Positions 365 through 26,890 of a stretch of 64,000 nt of DNA are shown here, one piece after another (position 1 is the first letter of the stretch; the number at the start of each line of letters is the position of its first letter). Position numbers and translations under genes: made by a program. The DNA comes from Giardia intestinalis (Eukaryota), in the NCBI GenBank assembly GCA_000002435.2, contig CM018792.1. One strand, written 5' to 3'. Under the pieces are notes generated by a model that was not told where the DNA came from, made no database searches, and was given only the letters and a program-made list of their open reading frames with translations.

Positions 365-378
365 CTTAGGTAGTGAAT
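364..378 (+). promoter_or_regulatory. extended VSP-type poly(A) signal ACTTAGGTAGTGAAT
   Basis: The box starts at the last base of the TGA stop. It fits the ACTYAGRTAGTRAAY pattern that, from memory of the Giardia literature, marks vsp 3' ends. Its ATG at 377 serves as the next unit's start. Confidence 0.7.
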
Positions 379-2364
379 GCTGTACAGTGATAGTGATAGT
401 GCTATGTGGTGTGGGGGTGATAGTGATAGTATGAGACTCCTCTTCATGGGCGGGTGCTACAAGACAGAGAGTCAGCCCGGCAGTGAGATATGCACAGCAG
501 CCAAGGATGGACTGTGCACTACTTGTAATACAGCTAACGGCCTGTTTAAGAACCCGGCTACAGCACCGAAGTCTGGTAGTGAGTGCATCCTCTGCTGGGA
601 CACGGTGGGAGATGGCGCGACGAAGGGAGTCGAGGGCTGTGCCACATGTACAGCACCAGCTAATAATAAGGGGGCTGCCACGTGTACTAAGTGCCAAGAT
701 GGATACTATAAGAACGCTCAGACATGTGTCAAATGTAATGAAGCTTGTCTGACCTGCGATGGAAGTGGCCAGAATGCGTGCACATCGTGCCCAGAGGGGA
801 AGTATTTGAAGACTGATAGTAAGACTTGTGTAGAGGCGTCTGCCTGTGCAAAGGGCACCTATGCCGACGAAGCAACCAGAAAGTGCGAATCCTGTACCGC
901 AGGCTCAGGTGCCGGCGGTACGGCAGGAGTGCAAGAATGCGCTGCGTGTGCATATAATAAGGCCAGCGGAAAACTGGAATGCTCTGAATGTACCGGCGGA
1001 GCCAAGATCCCCAGGGTGTCTTTGGATGGTACCTCGACCTGCGTGGCGAAGGACTACGCCGGGTGTGCCGGACAAGACAACGCTTTGTTTATAGTAGAGG
1101 ACAAGTCCAAATGCCTTTTGTGCGACGACGTTGAAACGGGGACAGATCCGAAGGATCAGGGCGTCGCCGGCTGTAAGGCTTGCACGAAGACCTCGAGTGC
1201 AAAGCCCACTTGCACAGAATGCTTGGAGGGATACAAAAGTACCGGAGTTGGTTCAGTAACATGCACCCCCTGTCACGCCAACTGTGCCACATGCTCAGCT
1301 GAAACTGCTGAGGATAAGTGCCTGACCTGCAAAGCAGGGTTCTTTCTAGTTGATGTTACGGGTGGGAAGAAGTGTGTCCCATGTGATAGCAAAACCGATA
1401 ATGGCATCGATGGGTGTGCCGAGTGTGATAACAGTACTGGATCCCTCAAGTGTACAAAGTGCAAGGTGAACTACAAGCAGAGCGGTACCGGTCCTGTTAC
1501 ATGTACCAAGACTTGTGAAGATGAGACTGCATGCGGGGGTACCTCTGGCGCCTGTGATGCCATCGTAATAGATGATAAGGGCAACACAAAGCACTACTGT
1601 TCATACTGTGGGGATGACAGTAAGGTACCGATTGATGGGAAGTGTGTTGATAGTGGTAGTATAAATGGTAATACTTGTGCTAAAGGTGTATGTACACAGT
1701 GTGCTCAAGGATACTTCTTATACATGGGAGGCTGTTATAAGGTAGCAAGTCCACCTGGTAACCTCATGTGCACTGAAGCAACAACAGCTGGTGTCTGCAC
1801 AGAGGCGGCCAACAATAAGTACTTCGTAGTACCAGGAGCATCCAATCAGAATCAGTCTGTATTGGCATGTGGTAACCCATTAGGCACACTAGTAGGCACT
1901 CAAGGTACTGCTAAGGCATACGTGGGGGTACTCAACTGTTCACAGTGCACAGCCCCAGCAGCTCTGTCTGATGGTGGTATGGCTGCTGCTATATGTACCT
2001 CCTGTGACAGTGATAGGAAGCCCAACAGGGATGGCAGTGGGTGCTTCGCATGTGCCGTTAGTGGATGCTCGCACTGCAACAGGGATGACATGTGCGAGGC
2101 ATGTAATGATGGTAAGAAGGTGAGCCCTGGGAGGAAGTCATGCGTGGATAAGTGTCCCAGCAACTCCACTGACACCGACTCTGTCTGTGTGTGCGACGAT
2201 GGATATAGCCCTGACAGCAGTGGGACCTCCTGTGTGTCTATGAGCACCAACAGGAGCGGGCTCTCCACGGGGGCCATCGCGGGCATCTCCGTCGCTGTCA
2301 TCGCTGTCGTGGGGGTCTCATAGGGTTCCTCTGCTGGTGGTTCCTGTGTAGAGGGAAGGCGTGA
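377..2364 (+). pseudogene. VSP-like unit 1, frame-shifted by a 1-nt deletion in a G-run (intact length would be 662 aa)
   Basis: An ATG at 377 (embedded in the upstream poly(A) box) opens a frame that terminates at TAG 2321-2323 (...AVIAVVGVS*). The near-identical copy at 20523..22511 has gtcgtggggggtctc where this copy has gtcgtgggggtctc at 2307-2320 (G6 against G5). The +1 frame 2323-2364 still encodes GFLCWWFLCRGKA* followed by the poly(A) box. This is either a pseudogene or a homopolymer sequencing error. Confidence 0.65.
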
Positions 2365-2378
2365 CTTAGGTAGTGAAT
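2364..2378 (+). promoter_or_regulatory. extended VSP-type poly(A) signal ACTTAGGTAGTGAAT
   Basis: The box follows the displaced CRGKA-TGA of unit 1 (2362-2364). Confidence 0.65.
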
Positions 2379-2417
2379 GCTCTATAGTGTATGATAATGG
2401 GTGATAGAGGGTGATAG
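2379..2417 (+). repeat. inter-unit spacer of GGTGATAG(A/T)G-type repeats
   Basis: The sequence is gctctatagtgtatgataatgggtgatagagggtgatag. The same spacer type recurs at 6192-6230, 15086-15124 and 18723-18761. Confidence 0.7.
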
Positions 2418-4277
2418 TGGAGTGAGATATGCACAGCAGCCAGTGATGGACTGTGCACTGCTTGTAAGACAGCTAACGGCCTGTTCAAGAACCCTGCTAC
2501 AGCACCAGAGAAGGGAAGGGAGTGCATCCTGTGCTCTGATACGACAGATAGAGACGGGGTCACGGGAGCCGCTGGATGCTCAGAATGCTCCCACACGGGC
2601 ACTAGCGGACCGGCCACATGCACTGTCTGCCAAGATGGATACATTAAGAAGGGTGATGCATGTGAGAAGTGTGATCAGTCTTGTCTGACCTGCGATGCAA
2701 GTGGTCAGAATCATTGTACATCGTGCCCAGAGGGGAAGTACCTGAAGAGTAATCAATGTGTACAAGATACTGGATGCGATGGAAACACTTATGCTGACCC
2801 GGAGTCGGGAACATGCAAGGCATGTAGTACGATACACGCAGAGTGCACGGCATGCTCCTTCGACAAGGCCACGGGGAAGCCGAAGTGCACTAACTGCGGG
2901 ACCAATAAGACCCCCAGGACGGCCCTCGACGGGACATCGACCTGCGTGGCGAAGACGCTTGAAGGATGCGAGGGCGCTGACGAGGCCTTATTTATGAAGG
3001 AGGACAAAACGTGTGCTCTTTGTAGTGATGTGACAGATTCAACTCTTGGTAACGAAGGAAAGGCCAACTGCAAGACATGTACGAAAACAGGAAGTGACAA
3101 TCCAACCTGCTCAGCCTGTCTCGATGGATACTTCTTTGATAGTGGTACTAGTACATGTACAGACAAGTGTGGTGATAACTGTGCCACATGCTCTGTTGCT
3201 GGTGATCCAAATAAGTGTGAAACCTGCAAGACTGGATACTTCTTAGTAACTACTACAGATCAACAGGGGAAGAAGTGCGTCCCATGCGATAGCGTAGACG
3301 ATAAGGGTCGCGAAGGCTGCAGTGTCTGCTCTAACAACGGTGCTTTCAAGTGCACTGACTGTAAGCCTAACTATCGCAAGGAGGGCAGTACTGGCTCTGT
3401 CACATGCACCAAGATCTGTGAAGATGATACTGCCTGTGGAGGAACTTCTGGTGCCTGCGATGCAATAGTGATTGATGATAAGGGTGTAGAGCATCATTAT
3501 TGCTCATACTGTGGAGAAGCTAATACGTATCCTATAGATGGGAAGTGTAATAGTGCTAAAGCAAATAATCAATGTGATCAAGGTGTATGTACACAATGCA
3601 CTAACAACTACTTCTTGTATATGGGAGGTTGTTACAAGGTTGATACAGTACCTGGACAACATATGTGCAAGACAGCAGCCAACGGTGTCTGTACTGCTGT
3701 TAATGCCAACAATAGGTACTTCATAGTCCCTGGGGCAACCAATCAGAATCAGTCTGTATTGGCATGTAGCAACTCCCTTGGCACACTAGTAGGCACTGGT
3801 GATACCTCTAAGGCATATGTGGGGGTAGATGGCTGTTCGGCATGTACGGCCCCAGCAGCTCCATCTGAGACTGGTATGACTGCTGCTGTGTGCACAGCGT
3901 GTACCAACAACAACAAGCCCAACCTGGCTGGGAGCGGGTGCTTCGCATGTACCGTTGACGGATGCTCGCACTGTGGAGCAGGCGATAAGTGCGAGGCCTG
4001 TACCAGTAAAGACCAGAGGCCGAACACAGACGGAACGAAGTGCATCGCCTGCAATATCGACGGGTGCGTCAGGTGCAGCGAGGAGAACAAGTGCGGCCAG
4101 TGCGGGGACGACTACAGGCTGGAGGGTGAGGCGTGCGTGTCCACCAAGCCCAGCGGGGGCAACAGAAGCGGGCTCTCCACGGGCGCCATCGCGGGGATCT
4201 CCGTCGCCGTGGTCGTTGTTGTGGGGGGCCTCGTCGGCTTCCTCTGCTGGTGGTTCGTGTGCAGGGGGAAGGCGTAG
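2418..4277 (+). CDS. VSP-like cysteine-rich surface protein unit 2 (619 codons open; no in-frame ATG before 2994)
   Basis: The frame is open from TGG 2418, just after spacer TAG 2415-2417, to TAG 4275-4277. The N-terminus reads WSEICTAASDGLCTACKTANGLFKNPA..., and the unit carries many CXXC motifs and YFLYMGGCYK. The C-terminus reads [38 protein letters not shown] and is followed by the poly(A) box. The ORF-track start at 2946 is a GTG. Confidence 0.75.
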   Translation, partial: WSEICTAASDGLCTACKTANGLFKNPATAPEKGRECILCSDTTDRDGVTGAAGCSECSHTGTSGPATCTVCQDGYIKKGDACEKCDQSCLTCDASGQNHCTSCPEGKYLKSNQCVQDTGCDGNTYADPESGTCKACSTIHAECTACSFDKATGKPKCTNCGTNKTPRTALDGTSTCVAKTLEGCEGADEALFMKEDKTCALCSDVTDSTLGNEGKANCKTCTKTGSDNPTCSACLDGYFFDSGTSTCTDKCGDNCATCSVAGDPNKCETCKTGYFLVTTTDQQGKKCVPCDSVDDKGREGCSVCSNNGAFKCTDCKPNYRKEGSTGSVTCTKICEDDTACGGTSGACDAIVIDDKGVEHHYCSYCGEANTYPIDGKCNSAKANNQCDQGVCTQCTNNYFLYMGGCYKVDTVPGQHMCKTAANGVCTAVNANNRYFIVPGATNQNQSVLACSNSLGTLVGTGDTSKAYVGVDGCSACTAPAAPSETGMTAAVCTACTNNNKPNLAGSGCFACTVDGCSHCGAGDKCEACTSKDQRPNTDGTKCIACNIDGCVRCSEENKCGQCGDDYRLEGEACVSTKPSGGNRSGLSTGAIAGISVAVVVVVGGLVGFLCWWFVCRGKA

Positions 4278-4279
4278 GT

Positions 4280-4294
4280 ACTTAGGTAGTGAAT
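4280..4294 (+). promoter_or_regulatory. extended VSP-type poly(A) signal ACTTAGGTAGTGAAT
   Basis: The box lies 3 nt after the unit 2 TAG stop. Confidence 0.65.
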
Positions 4295-4353
4295 GCTGTA
4301 CAGTGGGTGATAGAGGGTGATAATGGGTGATAGTGTGTGATAGAGGGTGATAG
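4295..4353 (+). repeat. inter-unit spacer, (GGTGATAGAG)n variant
   Basis: The sequence gctgtacagtgggtgatagagggtgataatgggtgatagtgtgtgatagagggtgatag has four GGG runs. Confidence 0.7.
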
Positions 4354-6177
4354 TGGAGTGATATCTGCACAGCAGCCAGTAATGGAGTATGCACTACTTG
4401 TAAGGCAGATAACGGCCTGTTCAAGAACCCGGCTGCACCATCAGAGAAGGGTAGTGAGTGCATACTGTGCTCTGATACGACAGATAGAAACGGGGTCATG
4501 GGAGTCGCTGGATGCTCAGAATGCTCCCACACGGGCACTAGCGGACCGGCCACGTGTACAGAGTGTCAAGCAGGGTTCGTTACGAAGGACAGTGCATGTG
4601 TGAAGTGCGGAGAGGGCTGCTCTGCCTGCTCAGCTGATACTCCGACTCAGTGTACCGCCTGCGTTGAGGGGAAGTTCCTGAAGGCTGACAAGTGTGTGGA
4701 TGCTAATCAATGTGACAATGGTAAGTATGCAGACCCAAAAACAGGCCAATGCAAGGCCTGCACGGACACAAGTGTCAATGAATGTGCTACGTGTGCATAC
4801 AGCGACACTCTTCAGAAGCCTGTGTGCACTGGGTGTAATAGTGGAGGAAACCTGCTTCTTAAGGTGAACCCCGATGGGTCAGCGACGTGTGTTGCGGAGG
4901 CAGAGTGCACAAGTGGCAATACGCACTTCCTTGAACAATCTCCAAAAGCTTGTGTTCCATGTGGTGATACTAAAAATGGTGGGATTCTAGGTTGTGATAC
5001 CTGCTCCTCTAAAACTACATGTACAAAGTGCCTCGATGGATATTACAATAGTGCAAGTGGTAATACCGCTACATGCACAGCCTGTGGTGAGAACTGTGCC
5101 ACCTGTGCTAAGGATACAAAAGACCAATGCACGACCTGCAAGCAAGGGTACTTCTTGAAGGATAGCTCCTCTGGTGAGTGCATCTCATGTAGTGATACAG
5201 CAAATGGTGGCCGCGATGGGTGCAGTGCATGCTCTAACAGTGGTGGATTCAAATGTACTGACTGTAAGCCTAACTATAAGAAACAGCTTAATGGAGATGC
5301 AGGGGATGACTATACGTGTACAAAGACCTGTGAAGATGAGACTGCATGCGGGGGGACAGCAGGGGCCTGCGACGCCATCGTGGTCGGCAACGACGGCAGC
5401 ATGCTCTCTTACTGTTCAAAGTGTGTTGGCGCCGGCTATGGCCCCATTAATGGGAAGTGCACCAATGCACTTGCAGGTAATACCTGCGCCGATGGTGTAT
5501 GTACGCGGTGCACCAACAACTACTTCCTCTATATGGGTGGCTGTTATAAAGCAACAGAGGTGCCTGGTAGCCTCATGTGCTCCGAAGCAACAACAGCTGG
5601 TGTCTGTACTACTCCCAATGCCAATGATAGGTACTTCGTAGTCCCAGAAGCAAAGGCTACTGATCAGTCTGTACTAGCCTGTGGCAACCCCCTAGGCACA
5701 CTAGTAGACCCTCAAGGTACTGCTAAGGCATACGTGGGGGTGGATGGCTGCTCACAGTGCACAGCCCCAGCAGCTCTGTCTGATGGTGGTATGGCTGCTG
5801 CTATATGTACCTCCTGTGACAGTGATAGGAAGCCCAACAGGGATGGCAGTGGGTGCTTCGCATGTGCCGTTAGTGGATGCTCGCACTGCAACAGGGATGA
5901 CATGTGCGAGGCATGTAATGATGGTAAGAAGGTGAGCCCTGGGAGGAAGTCATGCGTGGATAAGTGTCCCAGCAACTCCACTGACACCGACTCTGTCTGT
6001 GTGTGCGACGATGGATATAGCCCTGACAGCAGTGGGACCTCCTGTGTGTCTATGAGCACCAACAGGAGCGGGCTCTCCGCGGGGGCCATCGCGGGCATTG
6101 CCGTGGCTGTGGTCGTCGTCGTGGGGGGCCTCGTAGGGTTCCTCTGCTGGTGGTTCATCTGTAGAGGGAAGGCGTGA
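4354..6177 (+). CDS. VSP-like cysteine-rich surface protein unit 3 (607 codons; first in-frame ATG at 4498)
   Basis: The frame is open from TGG 4354, after spacer TAG 4351-4353, to TGA 6175-6177. The N-terminus reads WSDICTAASNGVCTTCKADNGLFKNPA..., the unit carries CXXC motifs and GGCY, and the C-terminus is ...NRSGLSAGAIAGIAVAVVVVVGGLVGFLCWWFICRGKA*. Confidence 0.75.
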   Translation, partial: WSDICTAASNGVCTTCKADNGLFKNPAAPSEKGSECILCSDTTDRNGVMGVAGCSECSHTGTSGPATCTECQAGFVTKDSACVKCGEGCSACSADTPTQCTACVEGKFLKADKCVDANQCDNGKYADPKTGQCKACTDTSVNECATCAYSDTLQKPVCTGCNSGGNLLLKVNPDGSATCVAEAECTSGNTHFLEQSPKACVPCGDTKNGGILGCDTCSSKTTCTKCLDGYYNSASGNTATCTACGENCATCAKDTKDQCTTCKQGYFLKDSSSGECISCSDTANGGRDGCSACSNSGGFKCTDCKPNYKKQLNGDAGDDYTCTKTCEDETACGGTAGACDAIVVGNDGSMLSYCSKCVGAGYGPINGKCTNALAGNTCADGVCTRCTNNYFLYMGGCYKATEVPGSLMCSEATTAGVCTTPNANDRYFVVPEAKATDQSVLACGNPLGTLVDPQGTAKAYVGVDGCSQCTAPAALSDGGMAAAICTSCDSDRKPNRDGSGCFACAVSGCSHCNRDDMCEACNDGKKVSPGRKSCVDKCPSNSTDTDSVCVCDDGYSPDSSGTSCVSMSTNRSGLSAGAIAGIAVAVVVVVGGLVGFLCWWFICRGKA

Positions 6178-6191
6178 CTTAGGTAGTGAAT
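6177..6191 (+). promoter_or_regulatory. extended VSP-type poly(A) signal ACTTAGGTAGTGAAT
   Basis: The box overlaps the last base of the unit 3 TGA stop. Confidence 0.65.
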
Positions 6192-6230
6192 GCTCTATAG
6201 TGTATGATAATGGGTGATAGAGGGTGATAG
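6192..6230 (+). repeat. inter-unit spacer, (GGTGATAGAG)n variant
   Basis: This spacer is identical to the one at 2379-2417. Confidence 0.7.
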
Positions 6231-8102
6231 TGGAGTGAGATATGCACAGCAGCCAGTGATGGACTGTGCACTGCTTGTAAGGCAGATAACAAGTACATAT
6301 TCCAGAATGGGGCAGAGAAGGTGACCCCTGGTAATGAGTGCATACTCTGTCATGATATCAAGGGAGCAGATGGATATACGGGGGTGGCTAACTGCGCCAC
6401 ATGTACAGCGCCAGCTAGTAGTACAGGACCTGTCACATGTACTGCCTGTCAAGATGGGTACTATAAAGATAACGATGCATGTACCAAATGTCATGCCGAC
6501 TGCGAGACATGCAATGGAGCCGGTCAAAATGCATGCACCCTCTGTGCGAGCGGGAAATATCTCGATGGGAACAATTGTGTAGAGGCTAATCAATGCACTG
6601 GAAGTAAGTACCCCGACCCAAGCACCGGCAAGTGCACAGCTTGTAACGCTCAAGAAGTGGGGATAGATGGATGCGACACATGTGAGTATGATACGACGCT
6701 GCAGAAGCCGAAGTGCCTGACATGTACTGGTAAGATAGTCAAAGAAGAGGCCGACGGGACGACCACCTGCATTGCTGAGGGGGCTTGTACCCAAAACGGG
6801 AACGATGGTCCGAACTTTCTAACTGAACCGAACAAAAAGTGCATTCTCTGCAGTAATAATGTAGATTCAACCCCTGGCAATACAGGTGTTCTTGGTTGTA
6901 GCACATGCTCTAAAGCTAATTCTGGTACAAATCCTCAGTGCAAGACATGCCTCGACGGATACTACAATAGCGCAAATAGTGGTAGTGGTACCGCTACATG
7001 CACAGTCTGTGGCGAGAATTGCGCCACCTGCACTCAAGCTGGCAATAATCAGTGTACTAAATGCAAGCCTGGATTCTTCATGAAAGGCAGTGGTCCTACT
7101 GGTGAGTGCCTTCCTTGTGATAATGCACAGGAGGGCATCGATGGATGTGCTGAGTGCACTGGTCCTGCAGGATCCCTCAAGTGTACAAAGTGCAAGCCTA
7201 ACAGGAAGCCCGTTGGAACCTCAGACAACTATACATGCACAGAGAAGACCTGCGAGGATGAGACTGCGTGTGGTGGTACCTCTGGAGCTTGCAATGCCAT
7301 AGTAATTGATACTGATGGCAACACAAAGCACTACTGTTCATACTGTGGAGATAGCAGTAAGTATCCTATAGATGGTCTCTGTGCTAGTGAGGCTCAAAGT
7401 AATACTTGTAACAACCATGTCTGTGAGTCTTGTACTACGGGGTACTTCCTATACATGAACGGCTGCTATGATGTGTCGAAGCCTCCTGGTAATCTCATGT
7501 GCTCCAAAGCAACAACAGCTGGTGTCTGCACAGAAGCAGCCAACAATAAGTACTTCGTAGTCCCAGAAGCAAAGGCTACTGATCAGTCTGTACTAGCCTG
7601 TGGTAACCCCCTGGGCACATTGATAGGCACTCAAGGTACTGCTAAGGCATACGTGGGGGTGGATGGCTGCTCCCAGTGTACAGCCCCAGCAGCTCCATCT
7701 GATGGTGGTATGACCCCCGCTGTGTGCACCTCTTGTGACAATAGTAAGAAGCCCAACCTGGCTGGGAGCGGGTGCTTCCCATGTGCCGTTGTTGGATGCT
7801 CGCACTGTGATATGGACAACAAGTGCTCCGCCTGCACAGAGGGGGGCAAGAGACCCAACAAGGAAGGGACAGCATGCTTTGAATGTAACGTGGAGGGGTG
7901 CGCTTATTGTAGTGGTGCTAATAAGTGTGAAGAGTGCAGCGATGGGTTCAAATTAGAGGGTGACAAGTGCGTGTCTTCTGGCACCAACAGGAGCGGGCTG
8001 TCTACTGGCGCCATCGCGGGCATCTCCGTCGCTGTGGTCGTTGTCGTGGGGGGCCTCGTGGGCTTCCTCTGCTGGTGGTTCGTGTGCAGGGGGAAGGCGT
8101 GA
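6231..8102 (+). CDS. VSP-like cysteine-rich surface protein unit 4 (623 codons; no in-frame ATG before 7080)
   Basis: The frame is open from TGG 6231, after TAG 6228-6230, to TGA 8100-8102. The N-terminus reads WSEICTAASDGLCTACKADNKYIFQNGAEKVTPGNECILCHD..., and the C-terminus is ...[38 protein letters not shown]. The ORF-track start at 6321 is a GTG. Confidence 0.75.
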   Translation, partial: WSEICTAASDGLCTACKADNKYIFQNGAEKVTPGNECILCHDIKGADGYTGVANCATCTAPASSTGPVTCTACQDGYYKDNDACTKCHADCETCNGAGQNACTLCASGKYLDGNNCVEANQCTGSKYPDPSTGKCTACNAQEVGIDGCDTCEYDTTLQKPKCLTCTGKIVKEEADGTTTCIAEGACTQNGNDGPNFLTEPNKKCILCSNNVDSTPGNTGVLGCSTCSKANSGTNPQCKTCLDGYYNSANSGSGTATCTVCGENCATCTQAGNNQCTKCKPGFFMKGSGPTGECLPCDNAQEGIDGCAECTGPAGSLKCTKCKPNRKPVGTSDNYTCTEKTCEDETACGGTSGACNAIVIDTDGNTKHYCSYCGDSSKYPIDGLCASEAQSNTCNNHVCESCTTGYFLYMNGCYDVSKPPGNLMCSKATTAGVCTEAANNKYFVVPEAKATDQSVLACGNPLGTLIGTQGTAKAYVGVDGCSQCTAPAAPSDGGMTPAVCTSCDNSKKPNLAGSGCFPCAVVGCSHCDMDNKCSACTEGGKRPNKEGTACFECNVEGCAYCSGANKCEECSDGFKLEGDKCVSSGTNRSGLSTGAIAGISVAVVVVVGGLVGFLCWWFVCRGKA

Positions 8103-8116
8103 CTTAGGTAGTGAAT
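8102..8116 (+). promoter_or_regulatory. extended VSP-type poly(A) signal ACTTAGGTAGTGAAT
   Basis: The box overlaps the last base of the unit 4 TGA stop. Confidence 0.65.
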
Positions 8117-8153
8117 GCTGTACAATGTGTGATAGAGGGTGATAGTATGATAG
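8117..8153 (+). repeat. inter-unit spacer, (GTGATAG)n variant
   Basis: The sequence is gctgtacaatgtgtgatagagggtgatagtatgatag. Confidence 0.7.
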
Positions 8154-24943: not shown

Positions 24944-26890
24944 ATGCAGCAAAGAGAGGAGACCTCACTGGCTCGGATAAAGGCAGCGGCTAACGCACGA
25001 GAAACCCATATTAATAAGATGCAGGATCGGAAAAGAGATGCCGTTGTCTTGGTGCTGGATTTCCTGAGAGCGGAGGGCTATGTCACAGCGTTGGCCAACC
25101 TAGAGGGAGAAACCGGGATAAGCCTATCAAAATATCAGGTCTGTGATAATGTTGATCTTCTGCACGTTGTACAGGAGTATCAAGAGTACTTTAGCTATAA
25201 ATATGATAAAGAAGCCAGAATAGTCAAAAAGGCAAGTGGTGAGCAATCCGGGCCGCAAAAGGCACCACCTCGACAAAAGCAAGTAGCGCCCCCGGCCATC
25301 CCCAAGCAGCTTTCATCTGTTCCATCAGATGACCAAAAGGTGTCCAAGCAGCCCGATCCGCGTACTAATCAAGGAAGCATGCCGCGTCAGCTACAAGTAA
25401 AAGAAGATACAGAGCAAAGCAAGAGTACAGAGCAAGCATTTCTTAATATCAATGGGGCGAAAATACCATATAAAAAGAAACCTGCCACGCCAAAGGCCCA
25501 GTCTGTTGTTCAAACCCCGTCATCGAACGAAGCACCTGCCCAGGCATACTCAATAAAGAAATCAGCGTCTTCATCTAACATCCCAGACGATCAGTATTCT
25601 CTTCCATTCCAACCTGTAAAAAAGGCCGCACCCGTAGCCCAGCCAGACACTTACCGGTCAAACTTGATTGCAAATGGCTCTCTGAATGATGGTGGGCTTG
25701 CATCGCTGTTTAATCTTATCAAGATGGAAATATTGACAGAGTCACCTAATGTACGCTTCAGCGATATCATCGGCCTCTCAGCAGCCAAAAAGATTCTGAG
25801 AGAATCAGTGATACTTCCAAGACGATACCCGCATTTGTTCGAAGGCGGAAATGGCCAGGGATCTTTGGCATGGAAGGGGCTTCTAGTTTATGGCAGCCCA
25901 GGGTCGGGAAAGACGTGCCTTGCAAAGGCGCTGGCCACAGAAAGCAGAAGCGTCTTCTTCTGCGTTTCTAGCGCGACGCTTACCAGCAAATACCATGGAG
26001 AAAGTGAAAAACTTGTGCGATGTTTATTCATCATGGCGCGCCAGTATGAGAGTGCGGTGATCTTCTTTGACGAGGTGGACAGTATACTATCCAGCAGAAC
26101 GGCTGATGGAGAGCACGAAGCTAGCAGGAGAATGAAGTCAGAGATGTTGCAGCAGATTGATGGGCTGTCGAGTTACATCGACTCTAGTAGTAGGATATTT
26201 GTCCTATGCGCCACCAACTTCCCCTGGGAGATCGACCAGGCCATGCTTCGCAGACTCGAAAAGCGCATCTTTATCGAATTGCCAGGATTTATCAGTAGAA
26301 TAGTAATGATAAGGAAGTTTTTGGGAGACAAGTTGCGATATGAGGATGCCAATTCAGTTTGCGGCGCCGAAGACTTTTGTTGCTATGATGAGTATGTAAA
26401 AAAGGTGTCCGAAATATCACATAATAAGGAGGATGTCCTTTCAGAGCAGTTCTTCACAGAGACCCTGAACAGACTCCAGCAGATCGGTCTCAAATACCTG
26501 GTTACTATTTCTGTGCTAACTTCGTGCTTCTCTGGCGCTGATCTGCATATTCTTTGCACAGAAGCATGTATGACTAAAATTCGTGAGGTGCTCGATGTCT
26601 TAGAGAAAGACTTTGCGGAAGACCAAATTACTGATGTAGATTTTAAAGAGAGCAATCCAGAAGTGATAGATAAGTACCTCAACACTGTGCTTCCAAGAGA
26701 TCAAAGCCCACTTGATTTAAAAGAGCTTGAGCACGAGGAAATTAGACAGGAGTGTCTTGAGGATCAAAAGCTGGATCTCTCTGTAGGATATACAGAGCTC
26801 ACAAAGGCTCTTATGGTGACAAAGCCAAGCTTTCATCCCCCAGATCTTCAAAAATACATCGATTGGGGGGCTGCATTTGGTTCGGGATAG
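24944..26890 (+). CDS. katanin p60-like AAA ATPase with N-terminal LisH motif (KATNAL2-like), 648 aa
   Basis: The ATG at 24944 follows aatataaaattagaagta. The N-terminus has a LisH-like DAVVLVLDFLRAEGYVTALANLEGETG. The AAA core is LLVYGSPGSGKTCLAKALATES (Walker A) ...SSATLTSKYHGESEKLVRCLF...VIFFDEVDSI (Walker B)...ATNFPWEIDQAMLRR, which is diagnostic of the katanin/spastin meiotic clade. Confidence 0.8.
   Translation: MQQREETSLARIKAAANARETHINKMQDRKRDAVVLVLDFLRAEGYVTALANLEGETGISLSKYQVCDNVDLLHVVQEYQEYFSYKYDKEARIVKKASGEQSGPQKAPPRQKQVAPPAIPKQLSSVPSDDQKVSKQPDPRTNQGSMPRQLQVKEDTEQSKSTEQAFLNINGAKIPYKKKPATPKAQSVVQTPSSNEAPAQAYSIKKSASSSNIPDDQYSLPFQPVKKAAPVAQPDTYRSNLIANGSLNDGGLASLFNLIKMEILTESPNVRFSDIIGLSAAKKILRESVILPRRYPHLFEGGNGQGSLAWKGLLVYGSPGSGKTCLAKALATESRSVFFCVSSATLTSKYHGESEKLVRCLFIMARQYESAVIFFDEVDSILSSRTADGEHEASRRMKSEMLQQIDGLSSYIDSSSRIFVLCATNFPWEIDQAMLRRLEKRIFIELPGFISRIVMIRKFLGDKLRYEDANSVCGAEDFCCYDEYVKKVSEISHNKEDVLSEQFFTETLNRLQQIGLKYLVTISVLTSCFSGADLHILCTEACMTKIREVLDVLEKDFAEDQITDVDFKESNPEVIDKYLNTVLPRDQSPLDLKELEHEEIRQECLEDQKLDLSVGYTELTKALMVTKPSFHPPDLQKYIDWGAAFGSG

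Follow-up and report, generated by a model that had tools for sequence, protein, structure and literature searches.

A shared inter-unit junction in a linear array of 5′-truncated VSP pseudogene cassettes of Giardia intestinalis WB

The first 22,528 nucleotides (nt) of a 64,000-nt stretch of Giardia intestinalis WB DNA (contig CM018792.1, assembly GCA_000002435.2; the whole stretch is referred to here as the window) carry 12 variant-specific surface protein (VSP) units, arranged head to tail on the plus strand. Consecutive units are joined by a spacer with a short repeat, followed by a conserved block of about 75 nt, the box. Together they make up the inter-unit junction in a linear array whose members are VSP pseudogene cassettes truncated at their 5′ ends. 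The feature is probably the joint of a known pseudogene array, in which the box has been homogenized by gene conversion and the spacer is a minisatellite in the 3′ flank. What is very probably this array, its non-expressed downstream members, and the hypothesis that these are cassettes or discarded genes were already published in 2010 (Adam et al., BMC Genomics 11:424, PMC2996952), and no new system is described here. What is added is a single junction design that recurs across units, at other loci, and in other isolates, with a common cut inside the constant N-terminal module. A further addition is a 75-nt stub of low synonymous divergence (dS) whose lineage-specific synonymous states are common to unlinked complete genes, a clean signature of concerted evolution.

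In translation, 12 C(R)GKA-stop ends lie on the plus strand between 347 and 22511 and none on the other strand. The first unit, U0, is partial at the window edge, and U1 to U11 range from 1.8 to 3.1 kb each (Table 1). The units have the hallmarks of the VSP family: a Cys-rich CXXC ectodomain (11.8-12.5% Cys and 25-44 CXXC motifs per unit), a match to Pfam PF03302 (E = 2e-38 for U2 and 2e-77 for U5), a transmembrane (TM) segment with a CRGKA end, and an extended poly(A) signal. With 12 same-strand units and stop-to-box distances of 52-172 nt, they form a VSP linear array. The open reading frame (ORF) of U6 is XP_001707663.1 and that of U11 (20523-22511) is XP_001707667.1, both recorded as “VSP [Giardia lamblia ATCC 50803].” The non-VSP ORFs of the window are exact WB (ATCC 50803) proteins, namely, katanin P60, GL50803_0017435, a coiled-coil protein, and NEDD8-E1, and the contig measures 2.76 Mb.

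The array units lack the two attributes of a functional VSP gene, a signal peptide and a PyAATGTT start. The first ~105 codons, which comprise the signal peptide and the N-terminal module, are missing from every unit, and no PyAATGTT initiator is found in 1-22600. In the eight units with a short junction, a stop shuts the VSP frame 1-2 codons ahead of the box, and another 140-1200 nt pass until the first in-frame ATG. In U1, U6, and U11, the ORF opens at an ATG that is part of the poly(A) signal upstream, and its first residues, MLYSDSDS..., do not form a signal peptide. Without an initiator, a signal peptide, or a usable start, the units are thus pseudogenes or cassettes and not functional VSP genes. 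Disabling lesions are present in only two of them, each a single-base deletion (U1 at 2310 and U9 near 18314).

All 11 internal junctions share one layout, in which a CRGKA stop is followed by CTTAGGTAGTGAATGCT, a C-poor spacer, and the box. The last 120 nt of all units have a mean pairwise identity of 0.77-0.92. The element CTTAGGTAGTGAATGCT is identical at 11 of 11 internal junctions, and the array end (22512-22528) has a one-base variant, ...AGTGAACGCT. Every CRGKA end is followed by CTTAGGTAGTGAA(T/C)GCT (12 matches versus 0 expected). The element includes AGTRAAY, the established Giardia poly(A) signal.

The spacer, measured from stop to box, is 52-172 nt long and consists of 7.9% C and 38% G. 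Tandem Repeats Finder identifies a 10-bp repeat with the consensus GGGTGATAGA in 1.9-6.4 copies, and the long spacers additionally hold period-6 AGTGAT runs. An earlier note, made from the sequence of this DNA alone, had placed such a repeat in every inter-unit spacer, and this is upheld: GGTGATAG occurs 23 times in the window, always on the plus strand and in 22 cases within these spacers, compared with 1.85 ± 1.33 occurrences in shuffles (maximum, 5). No repeats occur 3′ of the last unit. The statement that the repeats place stops in two of the three forward frames does not hold for 8 of the 11 spacers, in which all three frames are closed; the VSP frame is open only in the long spacers (U1, U6, and U11). 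All three frames are closed because the 10-nt period rotates the frame and the repeat unit contains both TGA and TAG, and we regard this closure as a by-product rather than a selected function. U1, U6, and U11 also keep ~50 more nt of VSP homology (..LLFMGGCYKTESQPG).

In this anatomy, the spacer represents the 3′ flank of the upstream unit, in which the poly(A) signal is followed by a C-poor minisatellite with periods of 10 and 6 bp. The varying repeat copy number between junctions may stem from slippage or unequal exchange. Two origins of the repeat were considered. Local alignment of the array-end and stand-alone VSP flanks with the spacers was no better than alignment with shuffles (P = 0.06 to 0.9), which does not support birth from a native VSP 3′ flank, and the GGC GAC GGG codons of CGDGYFLFMGGCY show only a 5-of-8 resemblance to the repeat.

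A copy of the box is present in 11 of 11 complete units (Table 1), 7 of which had been listed in the earlier note. The description “almost invariant” was too strong, since a comparison of the copies with the box of U2 shows 0-19 differences over 76 positions and the boxes of U4 and U9 change to another variant (NKYIFQN) past approximately nt 57. Four units have an exact copy of a 50-nt core, and a fifth has one with 3 mismatches. The codon alignment comprises the nine intact units; U8 and U10 are near-duplicates, so dS is also given without them. Over the box (codons 0-25), nucleotide identity is 88.5%, dS is 0.13 (0.18 without U8 and U10), and nonsynonymous divergence (dN) is 0.12, and the same amino acid is encoded by the same codon in 94% of cases versus 42-79% elsewhere. 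In the next 100 codons, identity falls to about 68-70%, with a dS of 0.6-1.0 (0.8-1.35 without U8 and U10) and a dN of 0.29-0.34. Identity in the unit middles is 39-61%, and dS there is saturated. Toward the 3′ end, identity reaches 0.83 over codons 480-530, and dS is 0.53 over codons 450-550; at the TM/CRGKA end, dS is 0.33 and dN 0.05. The box has the lowest dS in the unit, 5- to 7-fold below that of the adjacent coding sequence. The proposal that its synonymous conservation exceeds that of its surroundings is thus supported, and the alignment of the unit 5′ ends that had been suggested as a check gives an identity that is not similar throughout.

The off-frame ORFs that open at the second ATG of the box, in the same frame as the ORF track at 2401-2688, had been considered unlikely to be real proteins. 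We agree that they are not, and the ORF at 2446-2685 has no Pfam match. Counted from that ATG, they are 21-81 amino acids (aa) long, and the ATG itself is missing in U3 and U5, so their description needs to be corrected in both respects.

The box encodes SEICT..G.CT.C...NGLFKNP, corresponding to about residues 106 to 130 of complete VSPs. In complete VSPs of WB, DH (assemblage A2), P15 (assemblage E), and assemblage B, this peptide is located near residue 106, always after CG.GYFLFMGGCY...PG. A HMMER search with the first 100 residues past the spacer yielded 134 family representatives, and the match starts at residue 78-131 in 81 of 122 full-length matches. In P15, three complete VSP genes that stand alone, each on its own contig, have a DNA identity of 87-100% over the stretch of about 390 nt that begins with the ATG and closes with the box; beyond it, identity drops to about 0.5. 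Complete WB/DH and P15 proteins have the same conserved N-terminal ~130 residues. In the comparison of a DH gene with an ENA-assembled gene, the constant block stops slightly earlier, at GGCY, which places the box in the transition zone between constant and variable sequence. Judged from these comparisons, the box forms the 3′ part of a constant N-terminal module and is ordinary internal VSP coding sequence, rather than the special 5′ element of the units that it had been thought to be. It comes first in the units solely as a result of their truncation inside this module, of which only the last 75-125 nt are kept at the head of each array pseudogene.

The N-terminal module seems, from the available sequences, to be built differently in assemblage B. 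At two assemblage-B-like VSP loci (L004, 9860-9920, and L010, 400-440), the same non-VSP-like sequence (..GGTGAGTGAACGATCC..TTGATAGCC..) lies just upstream of CRPSSSPQA..GGCY, and the B-type proteins have the box at residue ~64, not ~106. Among the genes used for comparison, the most complete DH VSP gene available (contig L002, 10001-12112) is the head of a two-unit array and is missing its first ~60 nt, including the signal peptide. A P15 VSP (L003, 9722-11791) has a CAATGTT start and a signal peptide and contains an in-frame TAG about 40 codons in, and it is annotated from a downstream ATG. These two genes are either pseudogenes or the result of draft assembly errors.

The same junction occurs at other loci. 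Behind the DH head VSP (contig AHGT01000001; L002, 12113-12300), we found CTCAGGTAGTGAATGCT, GGTGATAG repeats, LLFMGGCY, and a box in succession. The head gene itself holds the box internally, and its box DNA is identical to that of U2 at 65 of 74 nt; with WB complete genes, the box is shared at the protein level. A metagenome-assembled Giardia contig (L011) has three such junctions, one of them ahead of a 70-aa mini-unit without a box. Since the repeat there precedes a unit that has no box, the spacer repeat belongs to the upstream 3′ flank and not to the box. Three other WB ORFs (2007 annotation) begin MLYSDSDS..GGDS..LLFMGGCY. The box and spacer are thus not specific to this array, a possibility that the earlier note had raised, with the box present in complete VSPs and the whole junction present in DH and in the metagenome contig. 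The GTGATAG repeats are absent after stand-alone VSPs (P15, assemblage B, and the ENA-assembled gene L005) and at the end of the DH pair, and poly(A) signals are present at these places.

The mini-unit of the metagenome contig (1880-2147) consists of the last Cys-rich repeat, the TM segment, and CRGKA, with a poly(A) signal and a GTGATAG spacer on both sides. It shows that the cut in an array unit can also fall elsewhere, and it is similar to vsp14, a 224-bp member reported by Adam et al. (2010). An exact 20-mer scan of metagenome contigs matched two GC-rich contigs (GC content, 0.55-0.60), which we take as chance matches, and word-indexed protein searches with short N-terminal queries gave no useful match. 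A short-read contig anchored on katanin ended 671 nt upstream of that gene, short of the array.

Similarity between the units is a patchwork in BLAST comparisons, and a Sawyer-type longest-run permutation test identifies seven unit pairs with a global P value of <0.002. U7 and U10 have an overall identity of 93.7%, and U10 is a chimera of ~300 nt of U8/U2-like 5′ sequence and a U7-like core. The U7/U10 core, which contrasts with flanks of different ancestry (Table 1), looks like a clean core-only copy event between nonadjacent units. The ratio of dN to dS of 0.22 between U7 and U10 is no evidence of purifying selection on the units after duplication, as the differences are clustered in the two flanks of other ancestry and the 1182-nt core contains only 2. 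Across the spacer and up to about nt 57 of the box, U4 has the same sequence as U2, U8, and U10; past this point it is unrelated to them (the NKYIFQN variant), which indicates an exchange breakpoint inside the box. Within the 59-nt box core, all four gametes are present in 34 of 66 informative site pairs. Junction blocks that straddle the unit boundary are inherited as one piece, reaching at most from 105 nt before the stop to 342 nt after it.

U1 and U11 are 20 kb apart and 99.7% identical over 2 kb. All five substitutions between them fall in a 14-nt spacer patch (426-439 versus 20572-20585), and four of these are G/A changes (GTGGTGGTGTGGGAC -> GTGATAGTATGAGAC); the only other difference is the 1-nt deletion at 2310 that frameshifts U1. 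The clustered changes look like micro-conversion by a neighboring repeat or a local mutational event.

Comparison with other lineages bears on how the box has been kept uniform. Among nonredundant WB units, box dS is 0.155, and between WB units and the DH complete gene and DH array unit, which lie at another locus, it is 0.19-0.24. It is 0.33 among the three P15 genes, 0.79-0.85 between WB and P15, and 1.09 between WB and assemblage B. Genome-wide dS between orthologs is 0.44 for WB and P15 and about 1.3 for WB and GS (PMC3091692, Table 2). The interior dS of the units, from 0.8 to >1.5, is above that of the split between assemblages A and E, and the box dS is well below it; on these values, the unit interiors appear to be older than that split. 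Synonymous differences are fixed between lineages, with P15 paralogues reading AGC..ACG GCA GCT and WB/DH paralogues reading AGT..ACA GCA GCC. Synonymous sites are thus uniform among unlinked paralogues within a lineage and free to change between lineages, which points to concerted evolution by gene conversion rather than to a conserved cis-element. Such a pattern would be the signature of a process other than recent expansion alone.

We therefore infer conversion, rather than constraint, as the cause of box uniformity. Of the readings offered in the earlier note, a recombination or homology anchor is the one favored by the evidence, given the mosaic units, the breakpoint in the box, and the synonymous states that unlinked complete genes have in common with the units. 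Array units and dispersed VSP genes would undergo homologous recombination with one another, both as gene conversion and as unequal crossing-over, and this would keep the constant 5′ and 3′ ends uniform within a lineage, while the variable cores would stay old and diverse. Each core is bracketed by two homology arms, the box on one side and the membrane-proximal/TM/CRGKA/poly(A) region on the other, a geometry that the swapping of cores between family members requires.

Several points weigh against this interpretation. The cross-assemblage comparison covers 24 codons in three P15 genes and one assemblage-B gene, all of them paralogues and not orthologues, and interior dS is inflated by alignment error in the variable region. 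The low divergence is partly due to recent duplication, with U2, U8, and U10 identical over ~330 nt and U1 and U11 nearly identical throughout. Breakpoints are not concentrated at the box, and several recur 290-345 nt downstream of its start; the box is one of several conserved islands used for exchange, codons 480-530 being another. The DNA-level scan of WB is confined to this window of the genome, and exchange is visible only among array units. Among the 120 VSP proteins listed, no complete VSP has a long near-identical tract (at least 88% over at least 60 aa) in common with the array units, apart from older annotations of the units themselves and P0148, which copies the 3′ two-thirds of U2 at 99% identity. 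Antigenic switching is, moreover, reported by Adam et al. (2010) to occur without a change in vsp DNA sequence or location, so that any donor role would be played on an evolutionary time scale and not during switching.

Beyond homogenization, the units may be working donor cassettes, whose cores would pass, by segmental gene conversion through both arms, into VSP genes that are competent for expression and have the same box. The upstream minisatellite could then have a break-prone or pairing role comparable to that of the trypanosome variant surface glycoprotein (VSG) 70-bp repeats. The units do have the structure of donor cassettes, being promoterless truncated copies with a core flanked on both sides by sequence common to expressible genes, on the 3′ side by an end that the whole family has in common. 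Use of the arms to move array cores into such genes is a further step, and we consider this extended proposal rather doubtful. If it is true, donor cassettes would form a DNA-recombination layer of antigen diversification on top of epigenetic and RNA-based switching, and conversion tracts from the box to the 3′ end in expressed VSPs would change the view of Giardia antigenic variation as purely epigenetic.

Plain recent tandem duplication, in which the units are young copies and neither gene conversion nor homogenization has taken place, is unlikely. It would account for the match of U2, U8, and U10 over 333-342 nt past the stop, for the near-identity of U1 and U11 over 2 kb, and for the U7/U8 and U9/U10 junctions, which are identical from -105 to +333. 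With redundant units removed, however, box dS is still 0.155-0.18, compared with 0.8 or more for the adjacent codons of the same genes. The relationships among units also shift along the sequence, as seen in the seven significant pairs, four-gamete failures are repeated inside the box, and the lineage-specific synonymous states are found in unlinked complete genes as well. The mosaic tests have already largely refuted this explanation.

We judge as equally improbable that uniformity reflects protein-level purifying selection, together with codon preference, on a structurally essential Cys-rich motif just past the N-proximal GGCY. The motif SEICT..G.CT.C...NGLFKNP is recognizable in assemblages A, B, and E, and in the boxes of complete P15 genes, dN is 0.07 and dS is 0.33, a ratio of 0.23. 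In the array, however, box dN is about equal to dS (0.12 versus 0.13; ratio, about 0.9), and thus box uniformity there is not due to amino acid constraint. Codon preference does not fit the choice between ACA and ACG, GCC and GCT, GGC and GGG, and CTG and CTA, which varies between assemblages yet is uniform within each.

Least probable of all, and very unlikely, is a cis-regulatory DNA or RNA element or small-RNA target, through which a factor or Argonaute-loaded small RNAs would silence or mark the array or VSP transcripts. VSP expression is reportedly controlled by RNA interference and microRNAs at sites throughout the ORF (PMC3937270), a sequence common to many VSP transcripts would be an efficient shared target, and the spacer is strongly strand asymmetric in its low C content. 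The box, however, has no nucleotide-level conservation between assemblages, its synonymous sites included, and folding of the spacer and box on both strands of three junction types gave z-scores of -0.76 to +1.77, like those of shuffles. A search of 1-24000 against Rfam gave no match at or above its gathering score and none at all to the box or spacer. None of the 99 published Argonaute-associated small RNAs (PMC3937270, Table S1) maps to either of these; the best duplexes that they form there (-24 to -27 kcal/mol) do not stand out from those in other windows, and the most stable ones (-36 to -38) involve the 3′ end. A canonical G-quadruplex motif is present in only 1 of 11 spacers. The suggestions of a cis-acting element and of a small-RNA target thus find no support in these data.

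Three specific candidates were rejected on the same grounds. A structured RNA or known RNA family is not indicated, with z-scores about 0 and only subthreshold Rfam matches outside the box, and a target of the published set of 99 small RNAs is not indicated either. A G-quadruplex as a general spacer feature, by analogy with the pilE G-quadruplex, is limited to 11232-11264 in the U5/U6 spacer, where 3.9 perfect repeat copies create four GGG runs with 7-nt loops; the other 10 spacers do not fit. Weak matches to sR44, an archaeal C/D small nucleolar RNA, at 2652-2711, 15359-15418, and 18996-19055 score 20-21 bits versus a gathering score of 45, and, as they share one position in the 5′ segments that U2, U8, and U10 have in near-identical form, they almost certainly represent a chance match tripled by duplication. 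The one near match among the small RNAs is that of miR77 (PMC3937270, Table S1), on the sense strand with 4 mismatches at 11088-11114, in the NRSGLST-coding conserved 3′ region of U5, and with 7-8 mismatches in other units. The source of miR77 may be a VSP-like 3′ end at another place in the genome.

Table 1. Positions of the array units, their junctions, and selected elements within the window
Feature	Coordinates	Strand	Remarks
U1	365-2364	+	
U2	2365-4277	+	
U3	4278-6177	+	
U4	6178-8102	+	
U5	8103-11207	+	
U6	11208-13235	+	
U7	13236-15071	+	
U8	15072-16870	+	
U9	16871-18708	+	
U10	18709-20510	+	
U11	20511-22511	+	
Conserved 3′ arm (example)	2230-2364	+	Last ~135 nt of U1: TM segment, CRGKA tail, stop; 1-nt deletion at 2310
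Extended VSP poly(A) signal, CTTAGGTAGTGAATGCT	2365-2381	+	AGTGAAT at 2372-2378
U1/U2 spacer	2382-2418	+	2 copies of 10-bp repeat at 2399-2417; all three frames closed; last VSP-frame stop is TAG 2415-2417, one codon before box
U2 box	2419-2494	+	GGAGTGAGATATGC...AAGAACCC; in frame from 2421 encodes SEICTAASDGLCTACKTANGLFKNP
Junction U0/U1, long type	365-555	+	Poly(A) signal; 115-nt spacer with period-6 AGTGAT repeats and retained MRLLFMGGCYKTESQPG (431-481); box 480-555; ORF from ATG 377 in upstream poly(A) signal
Junction U2/U3	4278-4430	+	77-nt spacer, ~6 repeat copies (4302-4363); box 4355-4430
Junction U3/U4	6178-6307	+	54-nt spacer; box at 6232; first 104 nt past stop identical to U2
Junction U4/U5	8103-8230	+	52-nt spacer; box 8155-8230
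Junction U5/U6, long type	11208-11455	+	172-nt spacer; 3.9 perfect repeat copies (11232-11270); LLFMGGCY remnant; box 11380-11455
Junction U6/U7	13236-13396	+	85-nt spacer; ~6.4 repeat copies (13262-13327); box 13321-13396
Junction U7/U8	15072-15201	+	54-nt spacer and box (at 15126); 342 nt past stop identical to U1/U2 junction
Junction U8/U9	16871-17010	+	64-nt spacer; box 16935-17010, NQYIFQN variant after ~nt 59
Junction U9/U10	18709-18838	+	54-nt spacer and box (at 18763); identical to U7/U8 junction from -105 to +333 around stop
Junction U10/U11, long type	20511-20701	+	115-nt spacer; box 20626-20701
U7 variable core	13632-14813	+	At most 2 mismatches in 1182 nt versus U10 19071-20252; 5′ ~310 nt differ at 85 and 3′ ~255 nt at 22 positions

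U5 stands out among the units in having 3105 nt, ~1.1 kb more than the others, two GGCY motifs, and 44 CXXC motifs, and its segment 1024-1628 is 95% identical to 1069-1672 of U9. The first clear gene past the array (23137-24381, minus strand) encodes an ODP-type metallo-beta-lactamase fold and a flavodoxin domain, as in a flavodiiron-type protein. A plus-strand ORF that overlaps it (22999-23844) has no Pfam match.

A group of complete VSP genes with an almost identical 5′ part was reportedly described in 1995. The same pattern is seen in the P15 trio and in WB/DH proteins, and only its 3′ tail is present here, at the pseudogene heads. Adam et al. (2010) cite such a group as suggesting recombination among vsps. 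Their paper also describes head-to-tail vsp linear arrays with a mean intergenic distance of 60 bp (range, up to 241 bp), whose downstream members have no PyAATGTT and are thought not to be expressed, and it proposes that array members are recombination cassettes or discarded genes; its recombination tests are anchored at the 3′ end only. The longest array described there is on chromosome 4 (vsp57-65) and includes the vsp61/64 pair, with 94% identity, and one clade-II member. The present array fits that description, with 93.7% identity for U7/U10 and one long divergent member, U5, which is probably the clade-II member (vsp59). The newer assembly adds units at its upstream end (U0-U2). The 10-bp spacer repeat, the common truncation point, and the low dS of the box are not mentioned in the accessible text of Adam et al. 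(2010), Rodriguez-Walker et al., or Xu et al. (2020), and a literature search with the literal box and spacer strings gave no Giardia paper.

Rodriguez-Walker et al. mention “arrays of multiple pVSPs” (pseudo-VSPs) without the 5′ portion. In Giardia muris, pseudo-VSPs form tandem arrays that have no signal peptides and are essentially untranscribed, and phylogenetic evidence of recombination or gene conversion with intact VSPs led to the proposal that they serve as a reservoir (Xu et al., 2020, Microb Genom, PMC7641422). Almost all of those arrays are next to telomeres and have the tail CRGK, whereas the array analyzed here is chromosome internal and directly adjoins housekeeping genes (katanin P60 at 24944-26890).

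Archives of silent cassettes are known from Borrelia (vls), Neisseria (pilS), Anaplasma (msp2 pseudogenes), and Trypanosoma brucei, whose VSG arrays have upstream 70-bp repeats. In these systems, an expression site is set aside for the purpose, and conversion in one direction has been documented in the course of infection, whereas Giardia possesses over 100 complete VSP genes that all have a start of their own. The Giardia array differs from vls, pilS, and VSG also in that its spacer repeat accompanies the 3′ flank of the preceding unit and not the box. It resembles the archives in its promoterless, 5′-truncated tandem copies, in a core bracketed by expressible-gene sequence, and in a short repeat upstream, and with the box and the 3′ end the cassette hypothesis gains concrete homology arms.

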